Shown here: positions 1-50,166 of the stretch, piece after piece | Position numbering within the stretch: the first letter of the stretch is position 1 | Layout: each line of letters begins with the position of its first letter | DNA from: an uncultured Gammaproteobacteria bacterium | GTDB taxonomy: Bacteria > Pseudomonadota > Gammaproteobacteria > UBA6002 | Assembly: GCA_963705725.1 (NCBI GenBank) | Contig: CAVPKM010000007.1 | Span: 93,568 to 157,567 of the forward strand | Direction: 5' to 3' | DNA length: 64,000 bases | The notes under the pieces: generated by a model | The model's database searches: none | Told to the model about the DNA's origin: nothing | The model's input: only the letters and a program-made list of their open reading frames with translations | Program-made: the position numbers and the translations under genes

Positions 1-7
1 GGATTCG

Positions 8-3000
8 TTGCCTGTGCCAATTAAGCGAGATAACGGCGATCAAACGGAGTTAACCTACCTGGATTCTCGCGGTCGTGTAATTTATGCACAAGATGCAGCC
101 GGTGAGGTTGAGGGCTTTACCTATAATGCGATGGCGAAGGTTGCCCTGCAGTGCTGGCGCTTGACGAACACGGTCAATGGAGTGGTGGTGCACTTGGATG
201 CCAAACGCTTTCATTATGATGCGATAAATCACGTGATCCGTCTTTTTTTGCTTCGTGATAATCAAGCAATACAAATGACCGCTTACCAATGGAATCTTTT
301 TGGCAACTGCATAGCAGAAGGACCGGGTAACCCTAGCTGCCCCCTCATTCGCCGCTTTGATGGTCTGAATCACCCTTGGTTTGATAATGAAGGCGGCCTC
401 GACAAAATCACGCTCAGAAATTTATCAGGGGAAGTGACCGTGCGGTTAACCTCACCGACCAAAGATTTAAGACAGGTGACTTATGATGCGTTGCCCACTG
501 TCCTCACTTGGACCCACTTAGACTTACTGCGAGAAGAAACCGTTCGCGATCGATTGGGACGCAAGATTTTGAGCACGAAGCCAGCTTATAGCCGGCCCGA
601 TACCCGCCATCCCATTGATATTCCCTTAAGTCTTGCTGTGGGCAAACAGTATCCAGCATTCGGCGAGGTGAGCTTAAGTTGGATTGTCCCACAAGAAAAG
701 ACGGTGGTGCTAGAGTGTTTCCTCTGGCCTTTTGGCCATCCTGAACAAAAGCAAGCCTTGCCTATTCAGACAATAAATGGGCGTTGTGGCTTGGGGGTTT
801 CACACTTATTGGATCGTTATCGGTATCAAATTAATTATTATTTTATCAATCCCCTCACCAAACAGCTTGAGGCAACCCCGATGTTTCAAACAGAAGGGGA
901 AGTGCAGATTGTGGGGAATTCGCTCAATCCATGTTTCAACCTCCTGGTCACCGTCGAAAAGGAAAATCAGCTGATATTATCGGGGAATACAGAAGGGATA
1001 GAATCGATCTCGCTCTGGCAGGATAATCAAGAAATTGCAAAGATCCCCGTGCAAGTTCAGCAAGATAAGCGGTGGGTTAATTTAAGTGCTTACCCTTCCG
1101 GTTGTTATACCTTACTCCCTTTAAAAAAGGACAATGTCGCCTTACCTGAAAGCTTGCCCTTTACTATTTATACGACAACACCGTCAAAGGTGCCGCTTGC
1201 AAAAGAAATTCAAGCAAGTTTTAGCTTATCGTTTTTAGCGCAAAATGGGTACCATGGGCAGCTAGGTTGGCAAGTATCTGATTATGCAGCAAGCCCGATC
1301 GTGATGACCTGTCATTACTTAGATCAAGAAGATCAAAGGCGCATTCATGAAGACACGATTTTTCCGGGTACAGATAAAGGCCAGTATACCGACAGCCGAG
1401 GAAACACCTTAATTTGCAATACGGAATTTGCCTATCCTGTTCAGGCAGTGTTGGCTCTTTCTTTATCGATTCAATTGGATGAAGACGATTTAGTGCCAAT
1501 TGCGGCTTATGCCCAACCGAGCGCCGCAGCAGGGGATGGCACAAATGTCATTCTAGCCAGTTATTTTCCCGGAACCACGGTTCTTTATATTGCGCCGCTA
1601 AGCGGGTTTGATCGGCTGCCCACGTTATCGTATTTGGATAGGACATTGGATCGCTTAGCCGATTGGAAGCCCTTGCCGGCGATGGGGATGACGCGAAGCG
1701 GTATTATTGTGGACGTGTCCGATTTCTTGCCTTGTGTGTATCCGTTTAAATTAGCAGATTCCCTTAGCTTTCTGCCGGATTTTGGGCAGGGAGCGGCCTA
1801 TTTCGCCAACCTGCCCGATAATTCGACTTCGCTTACTTTAACAGAAGTCATTCCCTTCGCACTCCCTTATCGAGAAGAAAATTTTCGGTTGTTTTTTACC
1901 GATCGGACATCGGTCGTTGATGTATTAATGCAGCATCAAACAAATGAGACGATAAGAAAGCAGTTAGCTCCCGAAATCTTAGAAGCCTTAATTCAGGCAT
2001 CCTTTACTCTGGGGAAAGCAGCAGAGCTTAATCTGAAAAATCCCTCGCTTGAATTTTGCGCTAAGCAGGAAGTCTTTGAACGTTACCTGCATTTCTTAAA
2101 GGAAAAAGGCGAACTGGGTTGGATCGCGGCGTTGATTTATGCCAAATCGCAAGACATGAGCGTTTATTTTTGGGAAAAATCGCTGGATAAGCCAGGATCA
2201 CTTCACTTAGTTGGGTTTCATGACGCAGGTCAACTGGCGAAAAAAACCTTATATTTTATGGTCTCAGGCTATACCCAATTTCATGTATTCTTACCAGAAG
2301 GAATAGGTTTAGCAGACCGCTATTCCCTCAATCCCACTTATTCTTTTACGGTATCCAAGGGCAGTCAACTTTATCCCAGTAGTCCTTTGCCGGCACCTGA
2401 ACCTATTCATGTGTTGCCGAGTCAGCATTTTGATTATGATCATTGGCACAACCTCACCCAGTTTGTCGATACGCTGGGTCATCCTATTGATTATACCCAT
2501 AACCATCTCAATCAGCGCCTCACACAACGTGATCCCGAAGTGTACATTGTTGAGCCAACCGGACAGCTTACCTTAGGTCGCCCACTGACGTTATGGGGTT
2601 ATAACGAGCGAGGCTTTAAAGTGGGGATGACCAATCCCAATGGCGATACTCAAGCCTTCCTTTGTAATGCCGGTAGCGAGGAAATCTATTGGATACTTGA
2701 AAATGGCGGCGTTGGCCGCAGGCAACAGTTTAACGCCTTAGGGCAGCGCGACAGTCACTGGGATGAGAAAAATCATCGCTGGCAGTATGAACATAATCCC
2801 CATAATCGTGTGACAAAAATTATTTATCCTTCAGGAAAATTCCAGGAGTTTGCCTATAACGAATGCAATTGGCGTTGTTTAGACACAGATTTTGACGGCA
2901 CAACAACGGGTTACAACCAGGATTTGCTGGGCAATGTCACCGATCGGCGGGAGCCTTCTAGCTATGTGACAAGCATGAATTATGATCGAAACGGCGAATT

Positions 3001-6000
3001 ATTAGGGGTGCAGAATCCCGATGGCAGTCAGCTCAGGTGGGTGCGCAATTACTTTGGTCGTGTGGATCGAGAGTTTGATTTAGCAGGTGTCCAAACGGTG
3101 CATATTTATAATTTAGCCAATCAAGAGATTAGAAGATATTCAGATAGCAGGCGATTAAACCACCGCGCCTCCGTGCTGGCTTTCCCTGATCCCACGCTCC
3201 CCACTCTCCTCAACTATGATATTGTGCTGTCAAAGGTTTATACTCAAGACCTTCACTTCCAGTACCTGGGTGGCCAGTTGATGCAGGTGTATGACAGAAG
3301 CCTGCAAACGCTCACGAAGTATACGCGCGATACCGAAGGGCAGGAGCAATCGGTTTGGCTTTATAACCAAGGCAGTCTCGTCAGGCAAGTCACGACTATT
3401 CTGGATGGGATGAGGCGTGAAGCTTGGACAGCTGATTCTGACTTAGTGGTCGCCACGCGCTATGACGCCGCTAGTAATCGCCGGCACATTACCACAACAG
3501 GCATTAACAGCCTTCCCCCACAAGACCTATGGTATTTTTACGATGCAACCGGTCATGTGATCTATGACGGCGCAACCGGCCTACAATTAGTTTATGAAGC
3601 CGGATTTCGGACACGAGAAATCAACGGAAAGGGGCTGTTTCGAACGCTTAATTATAATGCCGATGGCATTTTTAACCGAGCCATTTACCACCAACTTGGC
3701 CGAGTGTCTGTGACGACTGATCGCTACTATCAAGTGAATGGCTTGTTAACGCGTTATACCGAAGCAGATGCTCGAGGTATTTACTACGATCACCACATCG
3801 CCACTTACCCCGGCAGTCACTGGCAGTATAGTGACCTGCAAGTGCTAGATGGCAAACTGCAAAGCTATACGATGTATGGCGGATTCACTCCAATTGGCTT
3901 GCCCACCACTCAGCGTACGGACTATGAGTCGATGCGCGATGAGATGGCCAATTATTATATTGCCTATCGAGACATTAAGCTTGCCGCCGTCACCGGGGAT
4001 CGCTATACCAGGCAGGGGAAGAAGAATAAACTTCAGATTGCTCATCGCTACTTTACGCCAAATGGCACGATCACGTGTGATGAGGGGATAGCAAATGAGG
4101 ATGATCCTAATCATACGCTCACGCGGGTCTATACGAGCACGCAGGATGGCAAGATCCTGATAAGAAATGATTACCAGCCGGTAGAATTTACCCGTCATGG
4201 AGAAAAAATCTCTATTATGCAATGGGTGTCAAGTTCTCGGAATTTTTTTAATGCGAGCGGCGAGATGATCGCGAGCCTCATTAACGACATTACCAACCCG
4301 AATGCAGCAGTCATGGATCACTATTTTGCCCACTGCGAGAATCGCTTTAAGAGTGTTTTCCGCCACCCCAACCGCCTGAGCAGTGATTTAGCCGATGGCG
4401 CATCAGAGAGAAGGGCATTTGAAAAAGCCGCTAGAGCCCCACATCTTTTATTGCCCGATTTTGCGATGACCTATCCGGCGGCGGTGCCACAAAAATACAC
4501 TGTCTCACCCGGGGATCATTTTAAGCAGATTGCACAAAAGTTTTATGGAGATGAAGGCTTTGCTGGCGTGGTGGCACAAATGAATGGCTATGCGTTAACC
4601 GATCCTTTAGTGGTGGGACAAATTTTAATTCTGCCGCAGTACTTACCAAGTACCAATCATGCAGGAAATGTGACTCCCTACGAGCAATTTATGCAGATCA
4701 TGATCGGCAGGCTATCCCCCCATCTTAACTTAACGCTATCGCACCATCATGGATTCGTGGAAGTGGTACATGGGATAGTCGAGAGTGTGGCCTTGATTGC
4801 AGGGGTAGTGATCTCTGCCTTCGTGCCAGTTTTTGCCCCGCTGACGGTAGCAGTCTTCAGTGCGTTAGTAGAAGCAGCCTATCAGGGCGTAGCGGTAGCC
4901 ACACACTTACAGGCACAGTTTAGTTTAGCGCAAGTGATCACAGTGGGATTAGAGGCAGGGATAAGCGCGGGCATATTAGGGGCCGGTCAAGCAGGATTAA
5001 GCACTTGGATGCAAAACCTTGCCAGTCAATCGCTACAAACGGTAATTAAACAAACAGCTCAAATTGGAGTCATGAATCAATTCACCGAAATGATGACAGG
5101 CCTTCGCCACCAGTTTGATTTTGGCGCAGTAGTGGGAGAAGTGGTGAGCACGGCCATGTTGCATCAAGTTAGCCCACAAGCCCAGGCGATATTTAAGGAA
5201 TCGCCTTTTGTGGGTAACATTGTACAAAATGAAGCACGAAGCTTGGTGGGGAACGGCATCCGTGCGGTGATTGATCGCCAAGAGTCAGGGCTAGATCTGA
5301 AGCAGATTACCCTGAATGCATTAGGGACAACGCTGAGTCAGGCGATTAACACGAAGTTAGAGCAAGAAGCGTTAATGGCAGAATATGAGCGAGCCAGGCA
5401 GGAAAGCCTCGCGGCCTCCAGAAATGCGAGGCTTCATTCTCACGCTAACACAATTGATCAATCACGAAACCAGGCTAGTGGAAATAACCATAGCTTTTTT
5501 GCGAGTAATAACAATAATAGGAAAAAAGCAGCCGGCGCCCCGCAGCCGCACTTTTTTACTTCAACCCAAACGACAAAAACAGAACAAGCCAATGCTAAAA
5601 AAACGAATTGGTTGTTCGATAGGTTTGATCAACTCCAAGAAGCAAAAAACACCTCATCATCATTTAGTCATTCCATGACGCCCCTAAATGAAATCCTGGA
5701 GCACAATCCAAATCTTAAGATTGTTGCTCGCGGGCCAGCGGGTGTTGAGTTGTATGATAGAAAAAGTGGTGAGTATTTTACCTATAATATGGCTCGGGGC
5801 ATTCACCAAACTGAGAGAGGAGTTGACCCTGTTTATCCTGAAACACCATTTATGCGTGGCCCGTATGGCTTATTATTTGCTCTTCAGAAAATAGTGCAGA
5901 TTGAGAATTGTAGTATAAATGAATCATTTCAGGAAAAGAGTTTAGAAAATTCAGAATTGCGAGCAAGAGTTCTTAGCAATATTGCTGAAAGTAAAGTTGC

Positions 6001-6433
6001 AAATTTGGCATCCAATTTTAAAATATTAACTGCGAAAGAGAATCAATACAGGAATAGCTATAATCCAGATACTTGGAATATGGCTAATCTAAAGGAAGGT
6101 GATATTATTTTTGGTGGGTTACCTGGGCGTTCGTCCTATTATACTAATTTTCAGACTATATTAACTTCCCTAGGAAATAAAACAGATTTAGGTAAAATTT
6201 TGCAAGTAAAACCTCATAGTAAATTTGGTTATAGGCCTTACATAGGTCAATATGAAGTGCTTCATGATATCCGGATTCCGGCAGGTACCGCAATTAATAA
6301 TCCTGAGCTTGGCGAAGGAATGGGATATCAGTTCTTTATAAATAATAATTTAAGCAATCTTCGTTTAGTAAATCAATTTGATTTAGGAGAATTTTATGAG
6401 CAATCCATGTCAGCACATAAGCTTAGCTATTAA
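8..6433 (+). CDS. Giant YD/RHS-repeat polymorphic toxin with LysM domain (~4490-4636), hydrophobic helices (~4760-4990) and C-terminal toxin domain; 5'-truncated by window edge
   Basis: Many YD-type repeats (YLDSRGRV, YDHWHNLTQFVDTLGHPIDYTHN, YDRNGELLGVQNPDG). LysM motif YTVSPGDHFKQIAQKFYGD..VAQMNG..LVVGQILILP. AT-rich 3' tip followed by a small overlapping ORF. Frame is open to the window start. Confidence 0.9.
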   Translation: MPVPIKRDNGDQTELTYLDSRGRVIYAQDAAGEVEGFTYNAMAKVALQCWRLTNTVNGVVVHLDAKRFHYDAINHVIRLFLLRDNQAIQMTAYQWNLFGNCIAEGPGNPSCPLIRRFDGLNHPWFDNEGGLDKITLRNLSGEVTVRLTSPTKDLRQVTYDALPTVLTWTHLDLLREETVRDRLGRKILSTKPAYSRPDTRHPIDIPLSLAVGKQYPAFGEVSLSWIVPQEKTVVLECFLWPFGHPEQKQALPIQTINGRCGLGVSHLLDRYRYQINYYFINPLTKQLEATPMFQTEGEVQIVGNSLNPCFNLLVTVEKENQLILSGNTEGIESISLWQDNQEIAKIPVQVQQDKRWVNLSAYPSGCYTLLPLKKDNVALPESLPFTIYTTTPSKVPLAKEIQASFSLSFLAQNGYHGQLGWQVSDYAASPIVMTCHYLDQEDQRRIHEDTIFPGTDKGQYTDSRGNTLICNTEFAYPVQAVLALSLSIQLDEDDLVPIAAYAQPSAAAGDGTNVILASYFPGTTVLYIAPLSGFDRLPTLSYLDRTLDRLADWKPLPAMGMTRSGIIVDVSDFLPCVYPFKLADSLSFLPDFGQGAAYFANLPDNSTSLTLTEVIPFALPYREENFRLFFTDRTSVVDVLMQHQTNETIRKQLAPEILEALIQASFTLGKAAELNLKNPSLEFCAKQEVFERYLHFLKEKGELGWIAALIYAKSQDMSVYFWEKSLDKPGSLHLVGFHDAGQLAKKTLYFMVSGYTQFHVFLPEGIGLADRYSLNPTYSFTVSKGSQLYPSSPLPAPEPIHVLPSQHFDYDHWHNLTQFVDTLGHPIDYTHNHLNQRLTQRDPEVYIVEPTGQLTLGRPLTLWGYNERGFKVGMTNPNGDTQAFLCNAGSEEIYWILENGGVGRRQQFNALGQRDSHWDEKNHRWQYEHNPHNRVTKIIYPSGKFQEFAYNECNWRCLDTDFDGTTTGYNQDLLGNVTDRREPSSYVTSMNYDRNGELLGVQNPDGSQLRWVRNYFGRVDREFDLAGVQTVHIYNLANQEIRRYSDSRRLNHRASVLAFPDPTLPTLLNYDIVLSKVYTQDLHFQYLGGQLMQVYDRSLQTLTKYTRDTEGQEQSVWLYNQGSLVRQVTTILDGMRREAWTADSDLVVATRYDAASNRRHITTTGINSLPPQDLWYFYDATGHVIYDGATGLQLVYEAGFRTREINGKGLFRTLNYNADGIFNRAIYHQLGRVSVTTDRYYQVNGLLTRYTEADARGIYYDHHIATYPGSHWQYSDLQVLDGKLQSYTMYGGFTPIGLPTTQRTDYESMRDEMANYYIAYRDIKLAAVTGDRYTRQGKKNKLQIAHRYFTPNGTITCDEGIANEDDPNHTLTRVYTSTQDGKILIRNDYQPVEFTRHGEKISIMQWVSSSRNFFNASGEMIASLINDITNPNAAVMDHYFAHCENRFKSVFRHPNRLSSDLADGASERRAFEKAARAPHLLLPDFAMTYPAAVPQKYTVSPGDHFKQIAQKFYGDEGFAGVVAQMNGYALTDPLVVGQILILPQYLPSTNHAGNVTPYEQFMQIMIGRLSPHLNLTLSHHHGFVEVVHGIVESVALIAGVVISAFVPVFAPLTVAVFSALVEAAYQGVAVATHLQAQFSLAQVITVGLEAGISAGILGAGQAGLSTWMQNLASQSLQTVIKQTAQIGVMNQFTEMMTGLRHQFDFGAVVGEVVSTAMLHQVSPQAQAIFKESPFVGNIVQNEARSLVGNGIRAVIDRQESGLDLKQITLNALGTTLSQAINTKLEQEALMAEYERARQESLAASRNARLHSHANTIDQSRNQASGNNHSFFASNNNNRKKAAGAPQPHFFTSTQTTKTEQANAKKTNWLFDRFDQLQEAKNTSSSFSHSMTPLNEILEHNPNLKIVARGPAGVELYDRKSGEYFTYNMARGIHQTERGVDPVYPETPFMRGPYGLLFALQKIVQIENCSINESFQEKSLENSELRARVLSNIAESKVANLASNFKILTAKENQYRNSYNPDTWNMANLKEGDIIFGGLPGRSSYYTNFQTILTSLGNKTDLGKILQVKPHSKFGYRPYIGQYEVLHDIRIPAGTAINNPELGEGMGYQFFINNNLSNLRLVNQFDLGEFYEQSMSAHKLSY
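4237..5745 (+). repeat. Copy 1 of ~1.5 kb near-identical direct repeat (LysM + TM + linker)
   Basis: Matches 6827-8334 except about a dozen substitutions and one 1-nt indel, by direct comparison. Confidence 0.97.
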
Positions 6434-6662
6434 AATTTGTAAGCTATCAGGTAATACAATAAAAGAAATTTCACAAGGCTGGACAAATGCAAAAAAGGTA
6501 TTTCATTTTACTTATTCAATTAGCTTTGAACTAAAAAATAGGATCAAGACAAAAATACCTACCTTAGAATATTGGACGGAAGAAGACAATCACTACGAAT
6601 ACACAGAAGGTTTTTTTTGTAACGAATGTAAGGAAGGAATCTCATTCCCTTTAAAAGGGTGA
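6396..6662 (+). CDS. Cognate immunity protein of primary toxin, putative Zn-binding (CxH...CxxC)
   Basis: 88 aa, overlaps the toxin stop, AT-rich; PCQH near the N-terminus and FFCNECKEGISFP at the C-terminus. Confidence 0.7.
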   Translation: MSNPCQHISLAIKICKLSGNTIKEISQGWTNAKKVFHFTYSISFELKNRIKTKIPTLEYWTEEDNHYEYTEGFFCNECKEGISFPLKG

Positions 6663-6826
6663 TTTTTTAATTCAATCCGGTCTTGTTACTTTAGAGGTGA
6701 AGGCATAAATTTCTGTGAAAACCTTACTAAACAAGAGGCCTTCATTTATTAGAAGCAATTTAATTTAAATAGTGAAAATCAGGTTAAGGTAAGCGGAAAA
6801 AATTGATACAATCAATCAATTTGTAA

Positions 6827-8334
6827 TCGGAATTTTTTTAATGCGAGCGGCGAGATGATCGCGAGCCTCATTAACGACATTACCAACCCGAATGCAGCAG
6901 TCATGGATCACTATTTTGCCCACTGCGAGAATCGCTTTAAGAGTGTTTTCCGCCACCCCAACCGCCTGAGCAGTGATTTAGCCGATGGCGCATCAGAGAG
7001 AAGGGCATTTGAAAAAGCCGCTAGAGCCCCACATCTTTTATTGCCCGATTTTGCGATGACCTATCCGGCGGCGGTGCCACAAAAATACACTGTCTCACCC
7101 GGGGATCATTTTAAGCAGATTGCACAAAAGTTTTATGGAGATGAAGGCTTTGCTGGCGTGGTGGCACAAATGAATGGCTATGCGTTAACCGATCCTTTAG
7201 TGGTGGGACAAATTTTAATTCTGCCGCAGTACTTACCAAGTACCAATCATGCAGGAAATGTGACGCCCTACGAGCAATTTATGCAGATCATGATCGGCAG
7301 GCTATCCCCCCATCTTAACTTAACGCTATCGCACCATCATGGATTCGTGGAAGTGGTACATGGGATAGTCGAGAGTGTGGCCTTGATTGCAGGGGTAGTG
7401 ATCTCTGCCTTCGTGCCAGTTTTTGCCCCGCTGACGGTAGCAGTCTTCAGTGCGTTAGTAGAAGCAGCCTATCAGGGCGTAGCGGTAGCCACACACTTAC
7501 AGGCACAGTTTAGTTTAGCGCAAGTGATCACAGTGGGATTAGAGGCAGGGATAAGCGCGGGCATATTAGGGGCCGGTCAAGCAGGATTAAGCACTTGGAT
7601 GCAAAACCTTGCCAGTCAATCGCTACAAACGGTAATTAAACAAACAGCTCAAATTGGAGTCATGAATCAATTCACCGAAATGATGACAGGCCTTCGCCAC
7701 CAGTTTGATTTTGGCGCAGTAGTGGGAGAAGTGGTGAGCACGGCCATGTTGCATCAAGTTAGCCCACAAGCCCAGGCGATATTTAAGGAATCGCCTTTTG
7801 TGGGTAACGTTGTACAAAATGAAGCACGAAGCTTGGTGGGGAACGGCATCCGTGCGGTGATTGATCGCCAAGAGTCAGGGCTAGATCTGAAGCAGATTAC
7901 CCTGACTGCATTAGGGACAACGCTGAGTCAGGCGATTAACACGAAGTTAGAGCAAGAAGCATTAATGGCAGAATATGAGCGAGTCAGGCAGGAAAGCCTC
8001 GCGGCCTCCAGAAATGCGAGGCTTCATTCTCACGCAACACAATTGATCAATCACGAAACCAAGCTAGCGGAAATAACCATAGCTTTTTTGCGAGTAATAA
8101 CAATAATAGGAATAAAGCCGCCGGCGCTTCGCAGCCGCACTTTTTTACTTCAACCCAAACGACAAAAACAGAACAAGCCAATGCTAAAAAAACGAATTGG
8201 TTGTTCGATAGGTTTGATCAGCTCCAAGAAGCAAAAAACACCTCATCATCATTTAGTCATTCCATGACGCCCCTAAATGAAATCCTGGAGCACAATCCAA
8301 ATCTTAAGATTGTTGCTCGCGGGCCAGCGGGTGT
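6827..8334 (+). repeat. Copy 2 of ~1.5 kb direct repeat
   Basis: Matches 4237-5745; the T at 5446 is missing after 8035. Confidence 0.97.
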
Positions 8335-8998
8335 AGAATTATATGATAAAGCAAGCGGCCAATATTTTACTTATGATATTGCTCGAGGCATTCACCAAAC
8401 TGAAAGAGGAATTGAACCTGCTTATCCTGATAAATTGGTAATGCGTAAATCCTATGCAGTTATAAAACTTCTTGAGAGAGTAATTCAGCTTGAAAGAGGT
8501 GGCACATTTGAGCCATTTGGCGCAAAGAGCCTAAAAAATTTAGCATTACGATCGCATGTGCTTGCTAATATATCAGAGAGTCAGGTTGCACGAGCTGGTA
8601 GCTTTTTTAAGATTCATTCCTATGTTGAACAAGCTTTATTTAAATTAGATGTGAATACTGAATTAGATTCAGCAACTTTTTGGTCTGGTAAAGATAATCA
8701 GCAACGTGCTACTAGCTTTGCGACAAATATGCATAAAAAAACATTAGAGATGACGACAGGAGGAGAATATTTGGATTCTCTAGATTTGTTTAAGAAATCT
8801 GCTTATGAGCAAGCAGTAAAACCTTGGGATGCTTTATCAAAAAGATTTGCAGAAAATGCTTCTGGTGATGTTTATGCATTTGTGGAGGGAACGCGTCCTA
8901 CAAGTGTATTTAACCGAATAGAATATCTAATCTTAATTGAGAATCCTAAAGTAAATGAAATAGTTCATTCATCAAATGGCATTATATTCAGACCTTAG
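6855..8998 (+). pseudogene. Orphan LysM-TM-toxin module with ADP-ribosyl cyclase (Tox-ARC)-like C-terminus, frameshifted at ~8035 (ORFs 6855-8267 and 8201-8998)
   Basis: cacgctaacac (copy 1) versus cacgcaacac (copy 2). Tip motifs FWSG, TLEMTTGGEYLD, WDALSKRFAENASGDV and SVFNRIE resemble the CD38/ARC core. Confidence 0.8.
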
Positions 8999-9015
8999 TG
9001 TTAATGGAGAACAGA

Positions 9016-9297
9016 ATGTTGAAAAAAATAAATGAAGGTGGTGTTGTTAGTGATAGTGGTTATTCCATACAAATAACTGGTCCAGAAGAGCTTGAGTACA
9101 AATATAAAGATAATATTTTAAAAATTGATATTGGTTACGATCCTAAAAAAAGAACAGTTTTCATTTATGCTAGTGATATAACTCGCTGGGATCGTTCAAG
9201 GAACCACGCTAATGTTTCTAGGGCAGAAAAAGAAAATATAATCGAAAATATAAAAAAAGCGATAAAATTATTACCTGGGAAATTTGAGATTGCTTAA
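9016..9297 (+). CDS. Imm74-like immunity protein (cognate of ARC toxin)
   Basis: Directly after the ARC tip; GGAG RBS at 9006-9009; ends IYASDITRWD...EKENIIENIKKAI, typical of Imm74. Alternative GTG start at 8998. Confidence 0.7.
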   Translation: MLKKINEGGVVSDSGYSIQITGPEELEYKYKDNILKIDIGYDPKKRTVFIYASDITRWDRSRNHANVSRAEKENIIENIKKAIKLLPGKFEIA

Positions 9298-9576
9298 AAG
9301 TTTCTGGTATCCCAATTCGCCCTTTAGCTGTTTTGTTATGCACATTGTTGATAAGATTAAATTTAAATGGTACATTGTGCCTAAAAATTCGCTTGGTAAT
9401 TAATCTGACGGTTTATCTCTGTAATCACGCTATTACAAATAAGTCACTGACTAAGATACTTTTTTGATGAGCAACTTCAGGCGGAACTTATGAATCATTG
9501 CACTAAAATAAGACCCATTAAGCCACACACTCTTATCCTTAAAAAAAAGCAGATTACATAAAGATATCAATTCAAT

Positions 9577-9903
9577 ATGAGAGGAATTGATTTTTCAGAT
9601 CCAGTCGAGCTTTTGGTATTTCCTAGAGGTACTGAAGCGATACAATACATATTTCCAGGACAAATAAATCCTGGAAATTATTTTGCTCCGATTGGAACCA
9701 CTGGTAATAAACTTGGTATTTACACATCAGGTCGCTCTCCGATTACATTTTTTGCTACAAAGGACATACAAGTATTGAAATCAACTACGGCAGCAATGAT
9801 TGACAATTACTCTATGGCCCAATATGCATGGGAAATCCAAACAGAGGGTGGTGCAGCCCAATATTTTAATCTTTCCATTGATGGATGGAGGATTAAACAG
9901 TGA
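9577..9903 (+). CDS. Orphan toxin tip, Ntox46/Tse6-like NAD(P)+ glycohydrolase domain
   Basis: MRGIDFSDPV, GNYFAP, LGIYTSGR, VLKSTTAAMIDNYS and GGAAQYF motifs; no delivery domain upstream. Confidence 0.8.
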   Translation: MRGIDFSDPVELLVFPRGTEAIQYIFPGQINPGNYFAPIGTTGNKLGIYTSGRSPITFFATKDIQVLKSTTAAMIDNYSMAQYAWEIQTEGGAAQYFNLSIDGWRIKQ

Positions 9904-10175
9904 ATCGAATTAATTTTTTTAGGGATACCCTCGTTTGTTGCAAGGCTGCATTGGCAAAAAATCCAAGCGTTTTTCCATTGCAATTAGTAATAAATCAAAT
10001 AGAATTTCTCTTGGAGTTGGAAGAAGGCTGTTCTAACGATATATCAAAATTGTGTACAATTAAAATTGGTTGGATTGCTGCTAGAGAATTAGATGGTTTT
10101 TCTGATGAAACGCTTATAAATAAGCTTCATTTAATTTCCGCTGAGGTTGAAAAAATGAGAAAAGAGAAGTTTTAA
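9900..10175 (+). CDS. Tsi6-family immunity protein
   Basis: All-helical 91 aa, P-x-L-x-x-VINQIEFL...IKIGWIAARELD; GTG start overlaps the toxin stop. Confidence 0.8.
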   Translation: MNRINFFRDTLVCCKAALAKNPSVFPLQLVINQIEFLLELEEGCSNDISKLCTIKIGWIAARELDGFSDETLINKLHLISAEVEKMRKEKF

Positions 10176-10281
10176 TGATTAAAAAAACAAAGAGTATAGA
10201 AGACATCCAGATATTGCTAGGAAAACCTAAAAACTATCCTAATATTTTTTTTATCATTTTTATGAATTTAACTCCTCATTA

Positions 10282-10470
10282 ACTGATATCAATACAGCAA
10301 ATTTCTATTCAGGTAATAATGGTCTAAACCGAATACAAGCAATTAATTATGCGCGGTAAAACCGTGGTAATATTATAGATTTTACTCCTGGAGGGAAGTT
10401 TTAATGGGAGAAAATTGTATGAACGGTTACCTCTAGGTTTAGCTGATGCAGTTTGGAGATCCCTTTCATT
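10282..10470 (+). pseudogene. Decayed second ARC-like toxin tip
   Basis: Translates TDINTANFYSGNNGLNRIQAINYAR*NRGNIIDFTPGGKF, then after a frameshift NGRKLYERLPLGLADAVWRSLS; collinear with the ARC tip at 8650-8840. Confidence 0.7.
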
Positions 10471-10561
10471 TTCGAGAAATCACATATGGACTTAGTTAAT
10501 CCGTGCACTTCTCATTATGAAACTGCGGTTCACAATCGTTTAAGATTTAATGTAAGGATTT

Positions 10562-10822
10562 ATGACAATACTTATTCAATTGGATTATATAGCCTATGTG
10601 GAAAATAAACACGGATTATATATCGGAATGACACGCATTAACAGGCAAGACGGGAAAACTTTTATTAAAATCGATGCAGCTAGCGGATTTACAAATTGGC
10701 TGCCACCACATGCAGAAAAACCTTTAACTCAACGCAAAAAAATTGAAATATTAGCCTTTCTTGAAAAGGCTTTAAGTCTTTTAGATTACGGGTTTGAAAT
10801 TAGCAATAAACCTAGACATTAA
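10562..10822 (+). CDS. Second Imm74-like immunity protein
   Basis: NWLPPHAEKPLTQRKKIEILAFLEKALSLLDYGFEI; lies downstream of the ARC remnant. Confidence 0.65.
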   Translation: MTILIQLDYIAYVENKHGLYIGMTRINRQDGKTFIKIDAASGFTNWLPPHAEKPLTQRKKIEILAFLEKALSLLDYGFEISNKPRH

Positions 10823-10829
10823 AAAAAAT

Positions 10830-11003
10830 TGTTGAAAATTTTATTGATCTAGGAGTTGCTTATGGTATTGAATATTTTACAGCAGGTTTAGGGACATTAA
10901 TCCTAATTCCTGCATTAGCTATAACAAATCATTATATAGATCCCTTATTATAGCTAAGAGTGATGAGGTGTATGACAATTATCATTCCTTGTGGAATAAA
11001 TAA
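10830..11003 (+). pseudogene. 3' fragment of membrane-active toxin tip
   Basis: VENFIDLGVAYGIEYFTAGLGTLILIPALAITNHYIDP / IIAKSDEVYDNYHSLWNK*; homologous to the end of 13329-13757. Confidence 0.75.
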
Positions 11004-11013
11004 AGGAAATAAA

Positions 11014-11434
11014 ATGCAAGTTAATTTTATAATCAAAGAGAAAATAATTGATGTATCTTTATTATTTATCCTCATCACAATAATTAATCATATTTTTAAT
11101 ATTGCCATTATTTTTTAATTTCAAAATTATTCCTAATATTGAGAGGAAAGTGGGAAAAAAATTAAAATTTGAACTATTTTATTATAGTCTACATATTTTT
11201 AATGGCTACTTTATTCGTTATGGCGAGATATTTTTATATATCCTCACAATATATTTAAAAATTCCAAAAAAAATGAATCCCAAATATGTTTTACTAGAAG
11301 TCGCTTATTCGCGTGAATTATTTTCAACATCAGAAATATTTTGGAGTTTTATTGCACTATTTAATTTTGTATTCTTTTTTGTCTTTTTTATTATTTTTAT
11401 AAATTTAATTCCTCATAAAATTTCAATTAACTGA
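11014..11434 (+). pseudogene. 2-TM immunity-like membrane protein, type A copy 1, +1 frameshift near 11090
   Basis: ATG at 11014 matches the starts at 12782 and 14505; catatttttaat versus cattttttaat in the 14505 copy. Confidence 0.75.
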
Positions 11435-11457
11435 GGCAGCTTCTCATCCCTAATAAA

Positions 11458-12063
11458 ATGAACAAATTAACGAGCAGAAATGATAGCAATCCTCCTTTGT
11501 ATAAAGATTGGAGTACCTGGTTAGAGGCAAGCTTAGATGGTACGGCAAGGACTGCCAAACACATGTCACCCCTATATCAAATAATGCAGGAGACTTATCA
11601 TGATGCAGCAATGCTTAGTATCAATCGCGCAATTGAAATGGCAAGGATGAGCCATGAAGTTTCTCATGAGATGTCATACTGGAATGCGAGAAGAAATATG
11701 GCAGTGAGGTCTGCTAATTTTAATTTAATTCAATCAGAACGATATGGGCGATTTTGGTCGGTTACTGATAAACTAAAGCATTTAGGTAAAGTATCCACTG
11801 CGCTTGATGTGGGGCTTAGAGCAGAAAAAATTATTAAGGCTGCTCCCGATCAGCGCGGTCGAGTGGCTTTTGAGCAAAGTGCGACTTTTGTATTAGAAAA
11901 TATTGTTGATGTGGGAGTTGCTTCTGCTGTCGAGAGTACTACAGGAGGTTTAGGAATATTAATACTAATTCCAGCGCTGGCTATAGTAAATCATGTTATT
12001 GATCAATCTCAATTGGTCAAAAAATATAGCGATATTACTTATAATATGTTCATTGGAAAATGA
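11458..12063 (+). CDS. Orphan toxin tip, predicted membrane-active (colicin-like hydrophobic hairpin), variant 1
   Basis: LGKVSTALDVG helix then Gly-rich hydrophobic C-terminus (GGLGILILIPALAIV); followed by a membrane immunity-like gene. Confidence 0.6.
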   Translation: MNKLTSRNDSNPPLYKDWSTWLEASLDGTARTAKHMSPLYQIMQETYHDAAMLSINRAIEMARMSHEVSHEMSYWNARRNMAVRSANFNLIQSERYGRFWSVTDKLKHLGKVSTALDVGLRAEKIIKAAPDQRGRVAFEQSATFVLENIVDVGVASAVESTTGGLGILILIPALAIVNHVIDQSQLVKKYSDITYNMFIGK

Positions 12064-12074
12064 TTGGGGGTTAG

Positions 12075-12485
12075 ATGATAGATTATGATTCATTATTATC
12101 AAATGAAGTTGTATTTTATGTAATAACAGCTTCTCTTTGTATCACTATATTTGATTGTCTTTTTTTATTGCCAATGATTTTTAATTTTAAGATTATTCCA
12201 GGTATTGAGAAAAAAATAAAAAAAAAATTAAAATTTACTTTTATTTCCTATGAAATGTTTTTTTTCCGTGATTATTTTGCTAGATATTGTGAAATATCAT
12301 TATATATTCTTATGAAGTACCTGAGAATTTCAAAAAAAATGAATTCTAGATGTGCTTTAGTAAAGGCTGAATACCATCGTGAGCTATTTTCAAAATTTGA
12401 AATATTTTGGAGCTTTTTTTCGCTATTTAATTATCTAATATTTTTTGCTTGCCTATTTATAATTACACATGGCTTTTCAGGATAA
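12075..12485 (+). CDS. 2-TM immunity-like membrane protein, type B variant 1
   Basis: Paralog family: TM-LP.IFN.KIIP.IE.K.GK.L.F...YF.RY.EI..YI...EIFWS-TM. Confidence 0.7.
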   Translation: MIDYDSLLSNEVVFYVITASLCITIFDCLFLLPMIFNFKIIPGIEKKIKKKLKFTFISYEMFFFRDYFARYCEISLYILMKYLRISKKMNSRCALVKAEYHRELFSKFEIFWSFFSLFNYLIFFACLFIITHGFSG

Positions 12486-12513
12486 TATATGGCCAGTGGC
12501 TTTTGATGCTAGG

Positions 12514-12568
12514 GGTGAGTAGACCAGTGCATTTCAGCCCTAGCTCCTCGCAGGACAGTGCATGAACC
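12514..12568 (-). mobile_element. Degenerate group II intron 3' end (half of domain V + domain VI)
   Basis: Minus strand GGTTCATGCACTGTCCTGCGAGGAGCTAGGGCTGAAATGCACTGGTCTACTCACC resembles typical intron ends (GGTTCACGTACGGTTCTGxGAGGGGCT.GGGGTGAAAT.CC.GGxCTACTCxxC). No RT gene nearby. Confidence 0.6.
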
Positions 12569-12632
12569 AATCTAGAGATACCTGGCAAATCCGAACTGAT
12601 GACAGGCTTTAATCTTTAATATTGAATATTGA

Positions 12633-12772
12633 ATATTGAATATTTTACAGCAGGTTTAGGGATATTAAGGCTGATTCCTGCGTTAGCTGTAACAAATCAT
12701 TATATAGAGCCCTATGCTCTAGCCAGCGGTGATTACATATATGACAATTATCATTCCTTGTGGAATAAATAA
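12633..12772 (+). pseudogene. 3' fragment of membrane-active toxin tip
   Basis: IEYFTAGLGILRLIPALAVTNHYIEPYALASGDYIYDNYHSLWNK*. Confidence 0.7.
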
Positions 12773-12781
12773 GGAAATAAA

Positions 12782-13195
12782 ATGCAAGTTAATTTTATGA
12801 TCAAAGAGAAAATAATGGATGTATCTTTATTATTTATCCTCATCACAATAATTAATTTTTTAATATTGCCATTAGTTTTTAATTTCAAAATTATTCCTAA
12901 TATTGAGAGGAAAGTGGGAAAAAAATTAAAATTCGAACTATTTTATTATAGTCTACATATTTTTAATGGCTACTTTGTTCGTTATGGCGAGATATTTTTA
13001 TATATCCTCACAATATATTTAAAAATTCCAAAAAAAATGAATCCCAAATATGCTTTAGTAAAAGTTGCTTATTCGCGTGAAGTATTTTCAACATCAGAAA
13101 TATTTTGGAGTTTTTTTGCACTATTTAATTTTGTATTCTTTTACATTTTTTTTATTATTGTTATGAATTTAACTCCTCATAAAAAACTCAATTGA
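12782..13195 (+). CDS. 2-TM immunity-like membrane protein, type A copy 2
   Basis: Near-identical to 14505-14921 and 11014-11434. Confidence 0.75.
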   Translation: MQVNFMIKEKIMDVSLLFILITIINFLILPLVFNFKIIPNIERKVGKKLKFELFYYSLHIFNGYFVRYGEIFLYILTIYLKIPKKMNPKYALVKVAYSREVFSTSEIFWSFFALFNFVFFYIFFIIVMNLTPHKKLN

Positions 13196-13213
13196 CGCAT
13201 CACCCCTAATAAA

Positions 13214-13757
13214 ATGAACAAATTAACGAGCAGAAATGATAGCAATCCTCCTTTGTATAAAGATTGGAGTAACCTAGTTAGAGGCAAGCTTAGGATGCAG
13301 CAATCTTAGTATCAATCGTGCAACTGAAATGGCAAGGATGAGCCATGAAGTTTCTCATGAGATGTCATACTGGAATGCGAGAAGAAATATGGCAGTGAGG
13401 TCTGCTAATTTTAATTTAATTCAATCAGAACGATATGGGCGGTTTTGGTCGGTTACTGATAAACTAAAGCATTTAGGTAAGGTATCCACTGCGCTTGACG
13501 TGGGGCTTAGAACAGAAGCAATTATTAAGGCTACTCCCGATCAGCGTGGTCGAGTGGCTTTTGAGCAAACTATAGCTTTTGTGTTTGAAAATATTATTGA
13601 TAGAGGAGTTACTTATGGTATTGAATATTTTACAGGAGGTTTAGGGACATTAATCTTAATTCCTGCGTTAGCTATAACAAATCATTATATAGAGCCCTAT
13701 ATTATAGCCAAGAGTGATGTTGTGTATGATGATTTTTTACATAAAATGAGGAAATAG
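13214..13757 (+). pseudogene. Membrane-active toxin tip variant 2 (65-nt deletion plus small indels; residual ORF 13329-13757)
   Basis: Matches 11458 onward but lacks 11537-11601; diverges after GRVAFEQ. Confidence 0.75.
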
Positions 13758-13758
13758 A

Positions 13759-14181
13759 ATGCAAATTTGTTCTCTGTTAGTAGTAAAAGAAATGATGTTT
13801 AATATATATTTATTATTTTGTCCTATTGTTGCAATTAATATACTCTTTATAATTCCATTAATTTTTAATTTAAAAGTTATTCCTGGTATAGAGAGAAAAG
13901 TGGGAAAAAAATTAAAGTTTGAACTATTTTCTTATAGTCTACATTTTTTTAATAGCTACTTTGTTCGTTATGGCGAAATATTTTTATATATTCTCACAAT
14001 ATATTTAAAAATTCCACAAAAAATGAATCCCAAATATGCTTTAGTACAAGTTGCTTATCCGCGTGAACTATTTTCAACATCAGAAATATTTTGGAGTTTT
14101 TTTGCACTATTTAATTTTGTAATATTCTTTATTTTTTTCATTATTTTTATGAATTTAACTCCTCATAAAAATCTCAATTAA
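13759..14181 (+). CDS. 2-TM immunity-like membrane protein, type B variant 2
   Basis: Same paralog family with a distinct N-terminal TM; begins 1 nt after the toxin stop. Confidence 0.7.
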   Translation: MQICSLLVVKEMMFNIYLLFCPIVAINILFIIPLIFNLKVIPGIERKVGKKLKFELFSYSLHFFNSYFVRYGEIFLYILTIYLKIPQKMNPKYALVQVAYPRELFSTSEIFWSFFALFNFVIFFIFFIIFMNLTPHKNLN

Positions 14182-14400
14182 CTGATATCAATACAGCAAA
14201 TTTCTATTCAGGTAATAATGGTCTAAATCAAATACAAGCAATTAATTATGTGCGGCAAAATCGTGGTAATGTTATAGATTTTACTCCATGCAGAAGAATC
14301 TTTAACTCAAAGCAAAAAAATCGAAATATTAGCCTTTTTTGAAAAGGCTTTAAGTCTTTTAGATTACGGGTTTGAAATTAGCAATAAACCTAAACATTAA
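14181..14400 (+). pseudogene. Deletion-fused duplicate of ARC remnant (10282-10387) and Imm74 3' end (10709-10822)
   Basis: Direct nucleotide match; junction ttactcc/atgcagaa at ~14287. Confidence 0.8.
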
Positions 14401-14504
14401 AAATATTAGCTATAACAAATTATTATATGGAGCCCTATGCTATAGCCAGCGGTAATTACATATATGACAATTATCATTCCGTGTGGAATAAATAAGGAAA
14501 TGAA

Positions 14505-14921
14505 ATGCAAGTTTATTTTATGATCAAAGAGAAAATAATGGATGTATCTTTATTATTTATCTTGATCACAATAATTAATCATTTTTTAATATTGCCATTA
14601 GTTTTTAATTTCAAAATTATTCCTAATATTGAGAGGAAAGTGGGAAAAAAATTAAAATTTGAACTATTTTCTTATACTATAGATTTTTTTAATGGCTACT
14701 TTGTTCGTTATGGCGAGATATTTTTATATATCCTCACAATATATTTAAAAATTCCAAAAAAAATGAATCCCAAATATGCTTTAGTAAAAGTTGCTTATTC
14801 GCGTGAAGTATTTTCAACATCAGAAATATTTTGGAGTTTTTTTGCACTATTTAATTTTGTATTCTTTTACATTTTTTTTATTATTGTTATGAATTTAACT
14901 CCTCATAAAAAACTCAATTAA
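14505..14921 (+). CDS. 2-TM immunity-like membrane protein, type A copy 3
   Basis: Near-identical to 12782-13195; preceded by a toxin-tip fragment ending DNYHSVWNK*. Confidence 0.75.
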   Translation: MQVYFMIKEKIMDVSLLFILITIINHFLILPLVFNFKIIPNIERKVGKKLKFELFSYTIDFFNGYFVRYGEIFLYILTIYLKIPKKMNPKYALVKVAYSREVFSTSEIFWSFFALFNFVFFYIFFIIVMNLTPHKKLN

Positions 14922-14943
14922 CTGAGGCATCACCCCTAATAAA

Positions 14944-15487
14944 ATGAACAAATTAACGAGCAGAAATGATAGCAATCCTCCTTTGTATAAAGATTGGAGT
15001 ACCTGGTTAGAGGCAAGCTTAGGATGCAGCAATGCTTAGTATCAATCGCGCAACTGAAATGGCAAGGATGAGCCATGAAGTTTCTCATAAAATGTCTTAC
15101 TGGAATGCGAGAAGAAATATGGCAGTGAGGTCTGTTAATTTTAATTTAATTCAATCAGAACGATATGGGCGGTTTTGGTCGGTTACTGATAAACTAAAGC
15201 ATTTAGGTAAAGTATTCACTGCGCTTGATGTGGGGCTTAGAGCAGAAAAAATTATTAAGGCTGCTCCCGATCAGCGCGGTCGAGTGGCTTTTGAGCAAAC
15301 TGTGGCTTTTTGGGGGGAAAGAATTGCAGATTCGTTTATCTCTCCTGCAGTAGCCGAAGCTGCAGGTGGTTTAGGGATATTAGCTTTAGTTTCTATATTG
15401 GCGACAACTAATTATTATCTAGACAAAGACCTTAAGCCTATAAGTGATTTTCTTTATGATAAATATAACTCTTTCCAGAAGAAATAA
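14944..15487 (+). pseudogene. Membrane-active toxin tip variant 3 (same 65-nt deletion; residual ORF 15032-15487)
   Basis: Matches 11458 onward; deletion junction at 15022/15023; distinct C-terminal 60 aa. Confidence 0.75.
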
Positions 15488-15495
15488 GGAACAAA

Positions 15496-15906
15496 ATGCA
15501 TACCTTCTCACTACAGCTAACGAAAAATGTAATAATGAATATCTCTGCATTTTCTCTTTTAATTACAATGATAAATCTTCTTCCAGTATTACCATTCATC
15601 TTTAACCATGTCATTATACCAAAAATTGAAAAAAAAATTGGCAAAAGACTCCAATTCGATCCAATATACGATTCTTTATTTTTATGGGGTAATTATTTTG
15701 TAAGATATTTAGTGGTTTCAATGTATATAATGATAAAGATTTCTAATTTTTCTTTTTTGAAATTAAAAAGAAATGCATTAGAAAAGGCAAATTATCGACG
15801 TGAGCTTATTACAAATTGGGAAATTTTTTGGAGTTTAATTACATTATTAAATGCAATAGTATTTTGGGTTTCTCTTCTTTTGCTAATGAAGTTAGTTCCT
15901 AGATAG
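15496..15906 (+). CDS. 2-TM immunity-like membrane protein, type B variant 3 (most divergent)
   Basis: LPFIFNHVIIPKIEKKIGKRLQF...NYFVRY...WEIFWSL. Confidence 0.7.
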   Translation: MHTFSLQLTKNVIMNISAFSLLITMINLLPVLPFIFNHVIIPKIEKKIGKRLQFDPIYDSLFLWGNYFVRYLVVSMYIMIKISNFSFLKLKRNALEKANYRRELITNWEIFWSLITLLNAIVFWVSLLLLMKLVPR

Positions 15907-15919
15907 TTAAGGCTGTTGA

Positions 15920-16077
15920 CAAGTATGCCTCACACGTTGGAGTGACCAATCCCAATGACGATACATAAGCCTTCCATTTACCATCAACTTGGCCGAGCGG
16001 CCTGCTACTATCAAGTGAATGGCTTGTTAACGCGTTATACCGAAGCAGATGCACGAGGTATTTACTATGATCACCAC
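15920..16077 (+). pseudogene. Collinear scraps of the YD-repeat gene
   Basis: Segments match ~2628-2660, ~3681-3703 and ~3723-3796. Confidence 0.75.
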
Positions 16078-16079
16078 TA

Positions 16080-16527
16080 GGTAGCAATGATTGACAATTA
16101 CTCTATGGCCCAATATGCATGGGAAATCCAAACAGAGGGTGGTGCAACCCAATATTTTAATTTTTCCATTGATGCATGGAGGATTAAACAGTGAATCGAA
16201 TTGATCTTTTAGGGATACTCTCGTTTGTTGCAAGGCTGCATTGGCAAAAAATCCAAGCGTTTTTCCATTGCAATTAGTAATAAATCAAATAGAATTTCTC
16301 TTGGAGTTGGAGGCTGTTCTAACGATATATCAAAATTGTGTACAATTAAAATTGGTTGGATTGCTGCTAGAGAATTAGATGGTTTTTCTGATGAAACGCT
16401 TATAAATAAGCTTCATTTAATTTCCGCTGAGGTTGAAAAAATGAGAAAAGAGAAGTTTTAATGGTTAAAAAAACAAAGAGTATAAAAGACATCCAGATAT
16501 TGCTAGGAAAACCTAAAAATTATCCTA
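16080..16527 (+). pseudogene. Degenerate duplicate of Tse6-like 3' end + Tsi6-like gene (copy of 9789-10241)
   Basis: Direct match, with a 1-nt and a 4-nt deletion in the Tsi6 copy (GTG at 16191, stop at 16461). Confidence 0.85.
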
Positions 16528-16826
16528 TCAGGGCGTAGCGGTAGCACACACTAAACGGTAATTAAACAAACAGCTTAAATTGTGTCAAACAGATAGCAGT
16601 TTAGTATCGTTTGACGAAAAACAATTGAGCTGGTTATCAGCAGGACTGGATTGGGTTTTGGTGTCTACGTGGGAAGAGTTAGAGTACGATAATTATTTTT
16701 AAAGTTAAGAAATTTTTCAGAATCTGTTAAAATTGATTGCCATGACAAGCCAATGGTATTAAATAGTTTTGGATTGCTAAGAGACACTATGTTTAACCCT
16801 ACTTACTTAATTGTTGAAACAATAAA

Positions 16827-17390: not shown

Positions 17391-17706
17391 TCGTGATGCA
17401 CCATCATCCAGTTGAAATAAACACACCACTCATCGATCAGTATATTTTAAAAAATAAAGCAGAATCTGGAGAATCATCGAAGGATCGAATGTGAAATTAA
17501 TTATTTGTGGGCATGTGCATGGTGATTACCAAGTTAAATATAAAAATGTGATGATCGAAACCGCTCCCGCTACTTGCTTACAATGGCTTCGTGGAACAAA
17601 AATACTGAAAATTGATCAAAAAATAGGTTACAAAATCTATCATTTCGATGACGAATACTATGAGGCGACAACAAAACTTTGGGAAATTAATCAATATGCA
17701 AAATAA
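17387..17706 (+). pseudogene. 3' half of CpdA/Icc-like metallophosphoesterase, 5'-truncated and frameshifted
   Basis: VIVMHHHPVEINTPLIDQYILKN, a frameshift near 17463, then VKLIICGHVH...APATCLQW. Confidence 0.75.
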
Positions 17707-50129: not shown

Positions 50130-50166
50130 AAAATAAACTCCTAAAAAAATAATAATTACTGCCGAC

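Follow-up and report, generated by a model that had tools for sequence, protein, structure and literature searches.

What kind of toxin is encoded by a giant YD-repeat gene that has no recognisable Rhs junction and is followed by some 9.7 kb of orphan toxin and immunity genes, and against which cells would it be used? The question is raised by a stretch of 64,000 nucleotides (the window, G000:C7:93568-157567; G000 is the source assembly and is 92% complete), which opens inside such a gene. We consider it likely that the locus encodes a polymorphic toxin of the giant YD-repeat kind, from a large class that has not been described so far, and keeps spare parts for it. A preliminary description of the window had already spoken of a polymorphic toxin locus of a little-characterised class, and the conserved module and variable ends reported below agree with it. 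The architecture comprises a family-specific N-terminus, about 3,700 residues of YD repeats with inserted domains, a module, a variable linker and toxin, and a cognate immunity gene.

The module and the variable ends of the family

Among 1.84 billion representative proteins, a profile built from twelve modules matched 718 clusters at E≤1e-30; at E≤1e-10 the number rose to 3,792, in which weaker matches to plain LysM proteins will be included. When the best 150 matches were taken together with three earlier finds, 151 of these proteins contained the module and 69 were at least 3,000 residues long. The tail beyond the module measured 215-591 residues in 67 of the 68 long members whose module match reached at least profile position 290. 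For the comparison of clusters we used 122 proteins in which the module was complete and the tail had 200 residues or more; in BLAST clustering the modules formed one cluster, and the last 150 residues formed about 89 (93 with the tips of the window). Pairwise identity among 15 C-terminal regions, counted after exclusion of three rows that were truncated or near-duplicates (L026, L020 and L008), was 0.25-0.30 over most of positions 1481-1720, uneven to about 1780 and 0.10-0.16 past 1800. Across the family the module closes the conserved part of the protein, with the variable end behind it, and the C-termini of homologues vary after the same point, as had been anticipated.

The ends themselves are diverse. 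Pfam domains recognised at the tips of 38 short relatives were SLT and Phage_lysozyme2 (3 each), Lipase_3 (2), and Ntox22, TNT, YwqJ-deaminase and HNH (1 each). Relatives are deposited under names such as 'hypothetical protein [Legionellales bacterium]', 'hypothetical protein [Gammaproteobacteria bacterium]' and 'YD repeat-containing protein'. One subgroup (P0005, P0032, P0038 and others) consists of proteins of 5,000-7,000 residues that start with 'MVA(V/I)VSG..GLGL'; in P0005, the sole one of the subgroup with precomputed domains, the latter are RTX calcium-binding repeats and an EndoU tip, so that the family extends past small-genome lineages.

In the module, a LysM domain precedes a hydrophobic stretch, after which come two amphipathic helical repeats and then the closing 'AAxALG' helix. 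The repeated helical unit has the consensus 'QG...A.G.Q..FSW..V', that of the closing helix is 'AA.ALG', and about 70 poorly conserved residues lie between the last YD-like strand and the LysM domain. As a single sequence the LysM domain matched at E 0.006, under the Pfam cut-off; the family profile matched solved LysM domains at 8e-9, and Pfam LysM was found at E≤1 in 35 of 59 family members. In the AlphaFold model the predicted local distance difference test score (pLDDT) exceeds 90 over the LysM domain, and the remainder consists of nine helices in a row that form no compact fold (predicted template modelling score, pTM, 0.35). The order of LysM, hydrophobic helices, linker and tip given in the preliminary description is present, but the word hydrophobic applies to residues 1584-1626 only: no other segment passed a Kyte-Doolittle value of 1.6, and the other helices are amphipathic. 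A Foldseek search of the module model against the PDB returned LysM matches alone, every one at E >0.06. Kinship with DUF637, to which the nearest Atlas cluster pointed (score 0.92), was not supported, as PF04830 matched neither G000 nor the 59 family members.

No Rhs junction was recognised. The motif PxxxxDPxG[LWIVMF], reported earlier as missing, is indeed absent from P0001 (the window's part of the giant protein) and from G000; among 66 long members it occurs in four, all at residues 820-3267, remote from the module. Scans with Pfam and NCBIfam found YD repeats and no Rhs core. The model of the Rhs-associated core, TIGR03696, was silent in the whole of G000 and in all five other module carriers searched; the control matched in 3 of 14 known genomes.

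The giant gene, its tip and the orphan array

The giant gene begins at L005:11367, which is some 6.6 kb upstream of the first base of the window, and its YD repeats, which are matched by solved Rhs shells, reach to window position ~4230. In the assembly it appears as two frames, a YD-rich open reading frame of 1,534 codons (ORF1) and a second frame of about 2,800 codons. ORF1 stops 54 nucleotides ahead of the first start codon in the frame that enters the window; there is no further stop inside either frame. The Pfam model RHS_repeat matched P0001 at 3.2e-8 and ORF1 at 2.6e-41, and Pfam found nothing else on ORF1. The intact relatives P0003, P0016 and P0008 align unbroken across the boundary at L005:15950-15974, and for P0003 and P0016, the closest ones, the two alignments overlap at L005:15944-15956. 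The first 500 residues of ORF1 match the N-termini of long family members (about 60 of the 66 compared are among the matches listed), with 47% identity to P0003. From the uninterrupted homologues and the family N-terminus on ORF1 we therefore conclude that this is one gene with a single break. Its upstream part is a family-specific N-terminus with YD repeats and not a PAAR/VgrG-Rhs arrangement, in line with what had been supposed from the window.

The only public sequence data in which the locus was found were soil metagenomes, with no RNA sequencing run among the matches listed. Contigs from two soil-metagenome runs of one study, in which 5-8% of the sequence words occur, were aligned to the locus. 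Ten aligned pieces were at least 99% alike and had no letter differences besides an insertion at the break. It occurs in one 151-nucleotide contig (run X2, depth 3) as a single letter behind L034:522, which corresponds to L005:15954, exactly at the break. Both frames are open over L005:15930-15968, offset by one position, and inclusion of the extra letter yields a single frame of 13,068 nucleotides (4,355 codons and a stop). The break is thus either an error of assembly or a variant in the population, and on the sequence evidence there is an intact allele of about 4,355 codons; the YD repeats of the '>2100-aa' protein described at first are real, but that length is far from the full one. A programmed frameshift was ruled out, as there is no slippery heptamer at the site and a variant with one more letter is present. 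No metagenome piece spans the deletion in orphan 1 or bridges the repeats of the array.

The end of the main gene, tip 1, matched the C-terminal domain of Serratia marcescens Db10 Rhs1 (PDB 6xtd_A) at E 2.1e-20. According to the available text of Hagan et al. 2023 (PMC10539506), that domain is an NAD(P)+ glycohydrolase in which F1386, R1418 and Q1452 are essential. By our own count along the HMMER alignment these residues correspond to Y, R and Q in tip 1, which is a predicted member of the Rhs1-CT(Db10)-type NAD(P)+ glycohydrolases. Tips of this type are also found on P0045 and on a protein of genome G193, the latter being 41% identical. An open reading frame of 88 codons overlaps the end of the toxin gene, and its counterpart lies directly after the giant gene of G193 (39% identity, E 1.4e-12); tip 1 and its partner thus recur jointly in that genome. 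The partner has no match to known families. Both copies (that of the window and L039:3379-3645) keep a Cys on the N-terminal side, a later His and a CNEC motif. The sequence suggests a small, putatively zinc-binding immunity protein of no described family. A complex prediction of tip 1 with this protein scored 0.48, with one control at 0.30, and speaks neither for nor against binding.

The orphan array spans window positions 6827-16527. The four tip classes and four partner families that the preliminary description had listed for the window were all located, three of the classes being predicted to attack NAD(P)+. The '~11 kb orphan arsenal' that it saw exists as an array of ~9.7 kb, in which the intact members are tox4a and several immunity genes, and 'arsenal' overstates this. 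Orphan 1 is frameshifted, Ntox46 is cut at the N-terminus, the second Tsi6 copy is frameshifted, and tox4b and tox4c are without their 5' part.

The tip of orphan 1 matched Rib_hydrolayse at 2.9e-4, under the gathering score, and PDB entry 9ro8_A ('ADP-ribosylcyclase toxin') at 1.3e-3; Tox-ARC-type tips like it are found on P0008 and on a protein of genome G343. The gene that follows it resembles Imm74, the main partner of Tox-ARC in the available text of Zhang et al. 2012 (PMC3482391). Ntox46 and Tsi6 scored 27.4 and 32.5 bits against cut-offs of 25 and 26.9, respectively, and upstream of the Ntox46 fragment no open frame continues. Of the stand-alone immunity-like frame further on, the end recurs as a 117-nucleotide copy at 14287-14403.

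The fourth class, tox4, aligns over its full length with the end of P0066, a family member of 4,249 residues. An open reading frame like imm4 lies directly after the giant gene of genome G112, and the C-terminal end of the G112 protein is likewise hydrophobic. The Atlas clusters nearest to tox4 are colicin pore-forming domains (score 0.96, a lead only); there was no Pfam match at E≤0.1, to the ten-helix colicin pore domain PF01024 or to any other, a PDB sequence search gave nothing, and a word-index search returned the window's own three copies alone. We think that tox4 is probably a helical toxin that acts on membranes and is neutralised by a small membrane protein.

Exchange of tips may proceed through the module. 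As reported earlier, the first orphan is anchored by a duplicate of the LysM region: window 4237-5445 equals 6827-8035 with 5 mismatches in 1,209 nucleotides. The copy starts in the last YD-like strand and therefore spans everything past the shell. After the matching stretch one base is missing in the copy, followed by 421 nucleotides with 37 mismatches, and identity drops past ~5740. At the deletion the frames of orphan 1 overlap, and past it the copy shares the register of the main frame; a crossover in 5447-5737 / 8036-8326, where the sequences are 96-100% identical, would therefore yield an in-frame gene with the Tox-ARC tip in place on the main gene. Module-anchored orphans were looked for in nine other carriers, and such second copies follow the giant gene in G059 (1,235 codons), G343 (668 and >434 codons) and G036 (fragments). 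In the array of the window the first orphan alone has the anchor, and the later ones look like displaced remnants.

Table 1. Features of the locus and of its counterparts in other genomes. Positions refer to the window unless another sequence is named.
Feature	Position	Strand	Basis
Giant YD-repeat toxin gene, last 2,143 codons (protein P0001)	2..6433	+	Open-frame translation, RHS_repeat match
Conserved post-shell module (P0001 1485-1812)	4454..5437	+	Alignment of family, profile search
LysM (P0001 residues 1499-1545)	4496-4636	+	Profile and model
Hydrophobic stretch (P0001 residues 1584-1626)	4751-4879	+	Kyte-Doolittle
Low-complexity linker and pre-toxin stretch	5438..6043	+	Shared with orphan 1 and G193 homologue
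Tip 1, predicted NAD(P)+ glycohydrolase domain of Serratia Rhs1-CT(Db10) type	6044..6430	+	PDB match
Likely tip 1 immunity gene, 88 aa, Cys/His and CxxC motifs	6396..6662	+	Overlaps toxin gene end
Orphan 1: copy of module and linker (6827-8456), 1-nt deletion 8035/8036, putative Tox-ARC tip (~8636-8965)	6827..8998	+	Repeat alignment, Pfam, PDB
Putative Imm74 immunity gene for Tox-ARC tip	8998..9297	+	Imm74 5.5e-5, under Pfam cut-off
Ntox46 (Tse6-family) fragment without N-terminal third	9577..9903	+	3.9e-6, profile positions 46-150 of 157
Tsi6 immunity gene, intact	9900..10175	+	9.5e-8, over cut-off
Stand-alone immunity-like open reading frame	10562..10822	+	Weak likeness to Imm74 gene, BLASTP 8e-5 over 42 residues
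tox4/imm4 array	11102..15906	+	Threefold ~1.7-kb unit
tox4a, whole, 201-residue helical toxin	11458-12063	+	End-to-end alignment with P0066 terminus
tox4b, broken 5' part	13200-13757	+	Repeat alignment
tox4c, broken 5' part	14930-15487	+	Repeat alignment
tox4 3'-end fragments	12683-12770, 14406-14490	+	Repeats
Six imm4 genes, small hydrophobic membrane proteins	Starts 11102, 12075, 12782, 13759, 14505, 15496	+	Array reading
Relic at far array end: 74-nt YD piece (copy of 3723-3796), last 125 nt of Ntox46, frameshifted Tsi6 copy	16004..16527	+	Repeats, indels (offsets 6291, 6290, 6286)
LRR_6 genes	L046:6976-10128; L048:7128-10088; L045:238-3672 (-); L047:7316-10126; G112 L050:2461-5706 (-)

Delivery, targets and genome context

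The order of the domains allows a mechanism of delivery to be proposed. The part after the YD repeats would stay inside or against the shell, as in Rhs proteins, Tc toxins and SGS1. In the envelope of the target cell the LysM domain would grip peptidoglycan, and the helices would insert in the inner membrane and take the tip through it, or leave the cell-wall-degrading tips of relatives in the periplasm; the immunity genes would shield kin. We propose, tentatively and at somewhat short of an even chance, that the family is a separate delivery class: a very large YD cocoon with neither the Rhs protease junction nor a front end of the type V, VI or VII secretion pathways (T5, T6, T7), with its own peptidoglycan hook and membrane-inserting helices between shell and warhead, concentrated in carriers of Dot/Icm-type systems and used between bacteria that share one eukaryotic host cell.

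Several points weigh against the reading as a giant YD-repeat polymorphic toxin and against the delivery proposed for it. The delivery model is read from domain order alone. Just one stretch of the module is hydrophobic enough for a classical membrane helix, its helical part has no detectable relative of known function, and an hhalign comparison with 12 DUF637 sequences gave a probability of 17.5% over 20 columns. The AlphaFold model of tox4 is too poor for a fold search (pLDDT 47.7), so that the term 'pore-former' hangs on the language-model lead. The later orphans have no homology to the main gene, so that simple homologous recombination could not bring them into it. As assembled, the main gene is in two pieces and the majority of the orphans are damaged, and the intact allele depends on a single contig of depth 3. 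Immunity genes accompany host-directed NADases too (TNT and IFT of Mycobacterium). No experiment on any family member turned up in the literature searches.

The occurrence of secretion markers bears on the choice of target. The module query matched 21 of 401 genomes in an even sample of the class, 17 of which, in 13 GTDB families, were counted as carriers; in the other four (G024, G042, G355 and G374) the match covers the LysM part alone. The unpublished genomes G042 and G298 are included in the tallies of module matches and of Phage_GPD, and in no other result. A DotA/TraY homologue is present in all 17 carriers compared with 93 of 400 genomes overall, and in G000 itself it lies at C1:75669-77747 (398 bits). 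The Pfam models of DotI/IcmL and DotH/IcmK found nothing in G000, though the controls for both were also silent, and the type IVB system of this genome may be divergent, partial or of a conjugative type. The GTDB order of the source organism holds just 5 genomes. That the host bacterium is 'Legionellales-like', as had been supposed, fits the DotA/TraY gene, the names of relatives that read '[Legionellales bacterium]' and a WipA-like phosphatase domain (E 2.7e-44) in a 733-residue protein encoded at window 47967-50168 on the minus strand. This domain is known from a Legionella Dot/Icm effector.

A toxin aimed at the eukaryotic host, a protist or arthropod, would be exported through the type IVB (Dot/Icm-like) system; its LysM domain would bind chitin or another glycan, its helices would enter the host membrane as proposed for SGS1, and the immunity protein would protect the producer before export. 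The DotA/TraY counts and the WipA-like phosphatase speak for such a role, NADases are lethal to any cell type, and SGS1, in the available text of PMC9935623, has membrane helices and a toxin-like end stored in a YD shell. The tips that degrade peptidoglycan, SLT and phage lysozyme among the 38 short relatives, point the other way, and Tsi6, Imm74 and a sixfold membrane immunity gene are typical of interbacterial conflict; orphan immunity genes fit a host toxin poorly. Related genomes are not independent, and therefore the link to DotA/TraY may be ancestry alone, both traits marking one host-associated lineage; the silence of the DotI/IcmL and DotH/IcmK models in G000, with the limit given above, counts against export by this route. 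On balance we regard a host-directed toxin as unlikely.

Decay could also account for part of what is seen, the locus then being a foreign island that erodes in a shrinking genome and holds no working toxin. The split of the main gene in the assembly and the damage to orphan 1, Ntox46, the second Tsi6, tox4b and tox4c would agree with this, as would base composition: an island comprising the giant gene, a hybrid histidine kinase gene and two unknown open reading frames has a G+C fraction of 0.44-0.49, compared with ~0.37 around it. A gene with leucine-rich repeats (LRR_6, ~940-1,150 residues) immediately precedes the giant gene in 5 of 8 genomes compared and was not found anywhere in G000, which would likewise suit a relic. 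However, an otherwise identical contig has the letter that joins both frames, and frames of 1,534 and ~2,800 codons have stayed open with no other stop. The partner gene of tip 1 is whole, and the tip retains residues that the alignment links to activity. Displaced and broken orphans are normal in working Rhs loci and in those of contact-dependent growth inhibition (CDI). We therefore hold a mere relic to be improbable.

That the protein is an ordinary Rhs effector of a type VI secretion system (T6SS) with a junction too divergent for recognition is very improbable: its YD repeats do resemble solved T6SS Rhs proteins (7q97_A, 5.8e-9) and Phage_GPD, the VgrG-type model, matched in 9 of 17 carriers compared with 101 of 401 genomes overall, but 8 of the 17 carriers have no such match, the Rhs core model is missing from the five other carriers as from G000, the protein is about three times the size of known T6SS Rhs effectors with a family-specific N-terminus, and neither PAAR nor Phage_GPD matched anywhere in G000, where both controls matched.

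The last result extends to the whole assembly the absence of VgrG and PAAR that had been noted for the window. As to other export routes, ShlB (TpsB) was not found in G000, its control also being silent, and for an HlyB-type exporter G000 gave only generic ABC matches under the cut-off.

Some neighbouring genes deserve mention. The hybrid histidine kinase of the island (PAS, HisKA, HATPase and receiver domains) is encoded at L005:9518-11155, just before the giant gene, and G183 and G211 have similar kinases close to their giant genes (relatives in L048 and L045). The LRR_6 protein may be a partner or targeting protein of the toxin family. Directly after the array, at window 17904-20069 on the minus strand, lies the gene of a 721-residue protein with N-terminal tetratricopeptide repeats and a long unmatched part, which may be effector-like. 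Between it and the array a frame of 71 codons (window 17491-17706, plus strand) resembles, by eye, the C-terminal remnant of a metallophosphoesterase with a GHVH motif, which suggests that insertion of the island took place within or next to a broken housekeeping gene.

Comparison with known systems

The usual sorting of polymorphic toxins relies on front ends (T5, T6, T7, Sec) and on known junctions (Rhs core, VENN, LXG). The family described here lacks both a known front end and a known junction, and catalogues based on those features therefore miss it; in public data it has hundreds of clusters, whose members go under the labels 'hypothetical' or 'YD repeat-containing'. The interest of the locus lies mainly at this level. 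The module profile is a handle for finding members, together with many unnamed tips and immunity genes. The family may help to explain how a toxin leaves a YD shell with no aspartyl protease and how it crosses the inner membrane, and the presence of DotA/TraY in every sampled carrier makes warfare among bacteria in shared host cells testable.

In the literature we found no description of the LysM-helix module. The closest is that of Verhoeve et al. 2024 (PMC11077975), who report two LysM toxins with different C-terminal toxins in one intracellular Rickettsiales endosymbiont and whose supplementary Fig. S9 may show the same architecture. Their account, a single sentence with a figure legend, says nothing of a helical module, a missing Rhs core or a role as anchor.

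The pre-toxin region of CdiA (DUF637/PT-VENN) is, like the module, the last conserved stretch before a variable toxin, and has a hydrophobic segment followed by Gly/Ala-rich helices. CdiA differs in that the window protein has no filamentous haemagglutinin (FHA) repeats; TpsB, with the silent control mentioned above, was not found, and homology to DUF637 is unsupported.

Mosquito SGS1 and the BC cocoons of Tc toxins share with the window protein a YD shell followed by predicted membrane-entering helices and then a toxin-like end, and in SGS1 the helices are stored inside the shell (available text of PMC9935623). SGS1 and TcC retain an aspartyl-protease cleavage site, whereas the window protein has none, and the word LysM does not occur in the available text on SGS1. 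Among solved chains SGS1 gave no sequence match, and no TcA-like partner was seen.

The nearest likeness is to the Rhs/YD polymorphic toxins, that is, the T6SS Rhs effectors and WapA. With them the locus shares YD repeats, a variable C-terminal toxin, an adjoining downstream immunity gene and displaced orphans; the tips held in common are the Rhs1-CT NADase, Ntox46 with Tsi6, and a putative Tox-ARC with an Imm74-like gene. The traits that Zhang et al. 2012 give for polymorphic toxins, namely a conserved body, hypervariable C-terminal toxins, adjoining immunity genes and orphan cassettes, are all found here. Unlike the Rhs toxins, the window gene has no Rhs core with its aspartyl-protease junction, no PAAR or VgrG and no signal-peptide front end, and its protein is about three to four times longer than known Rhs effectors. 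In the place of that junction it has a LysM-helical module of ~330 residues, which is both the conserved junction and the putative anchor for recombination.

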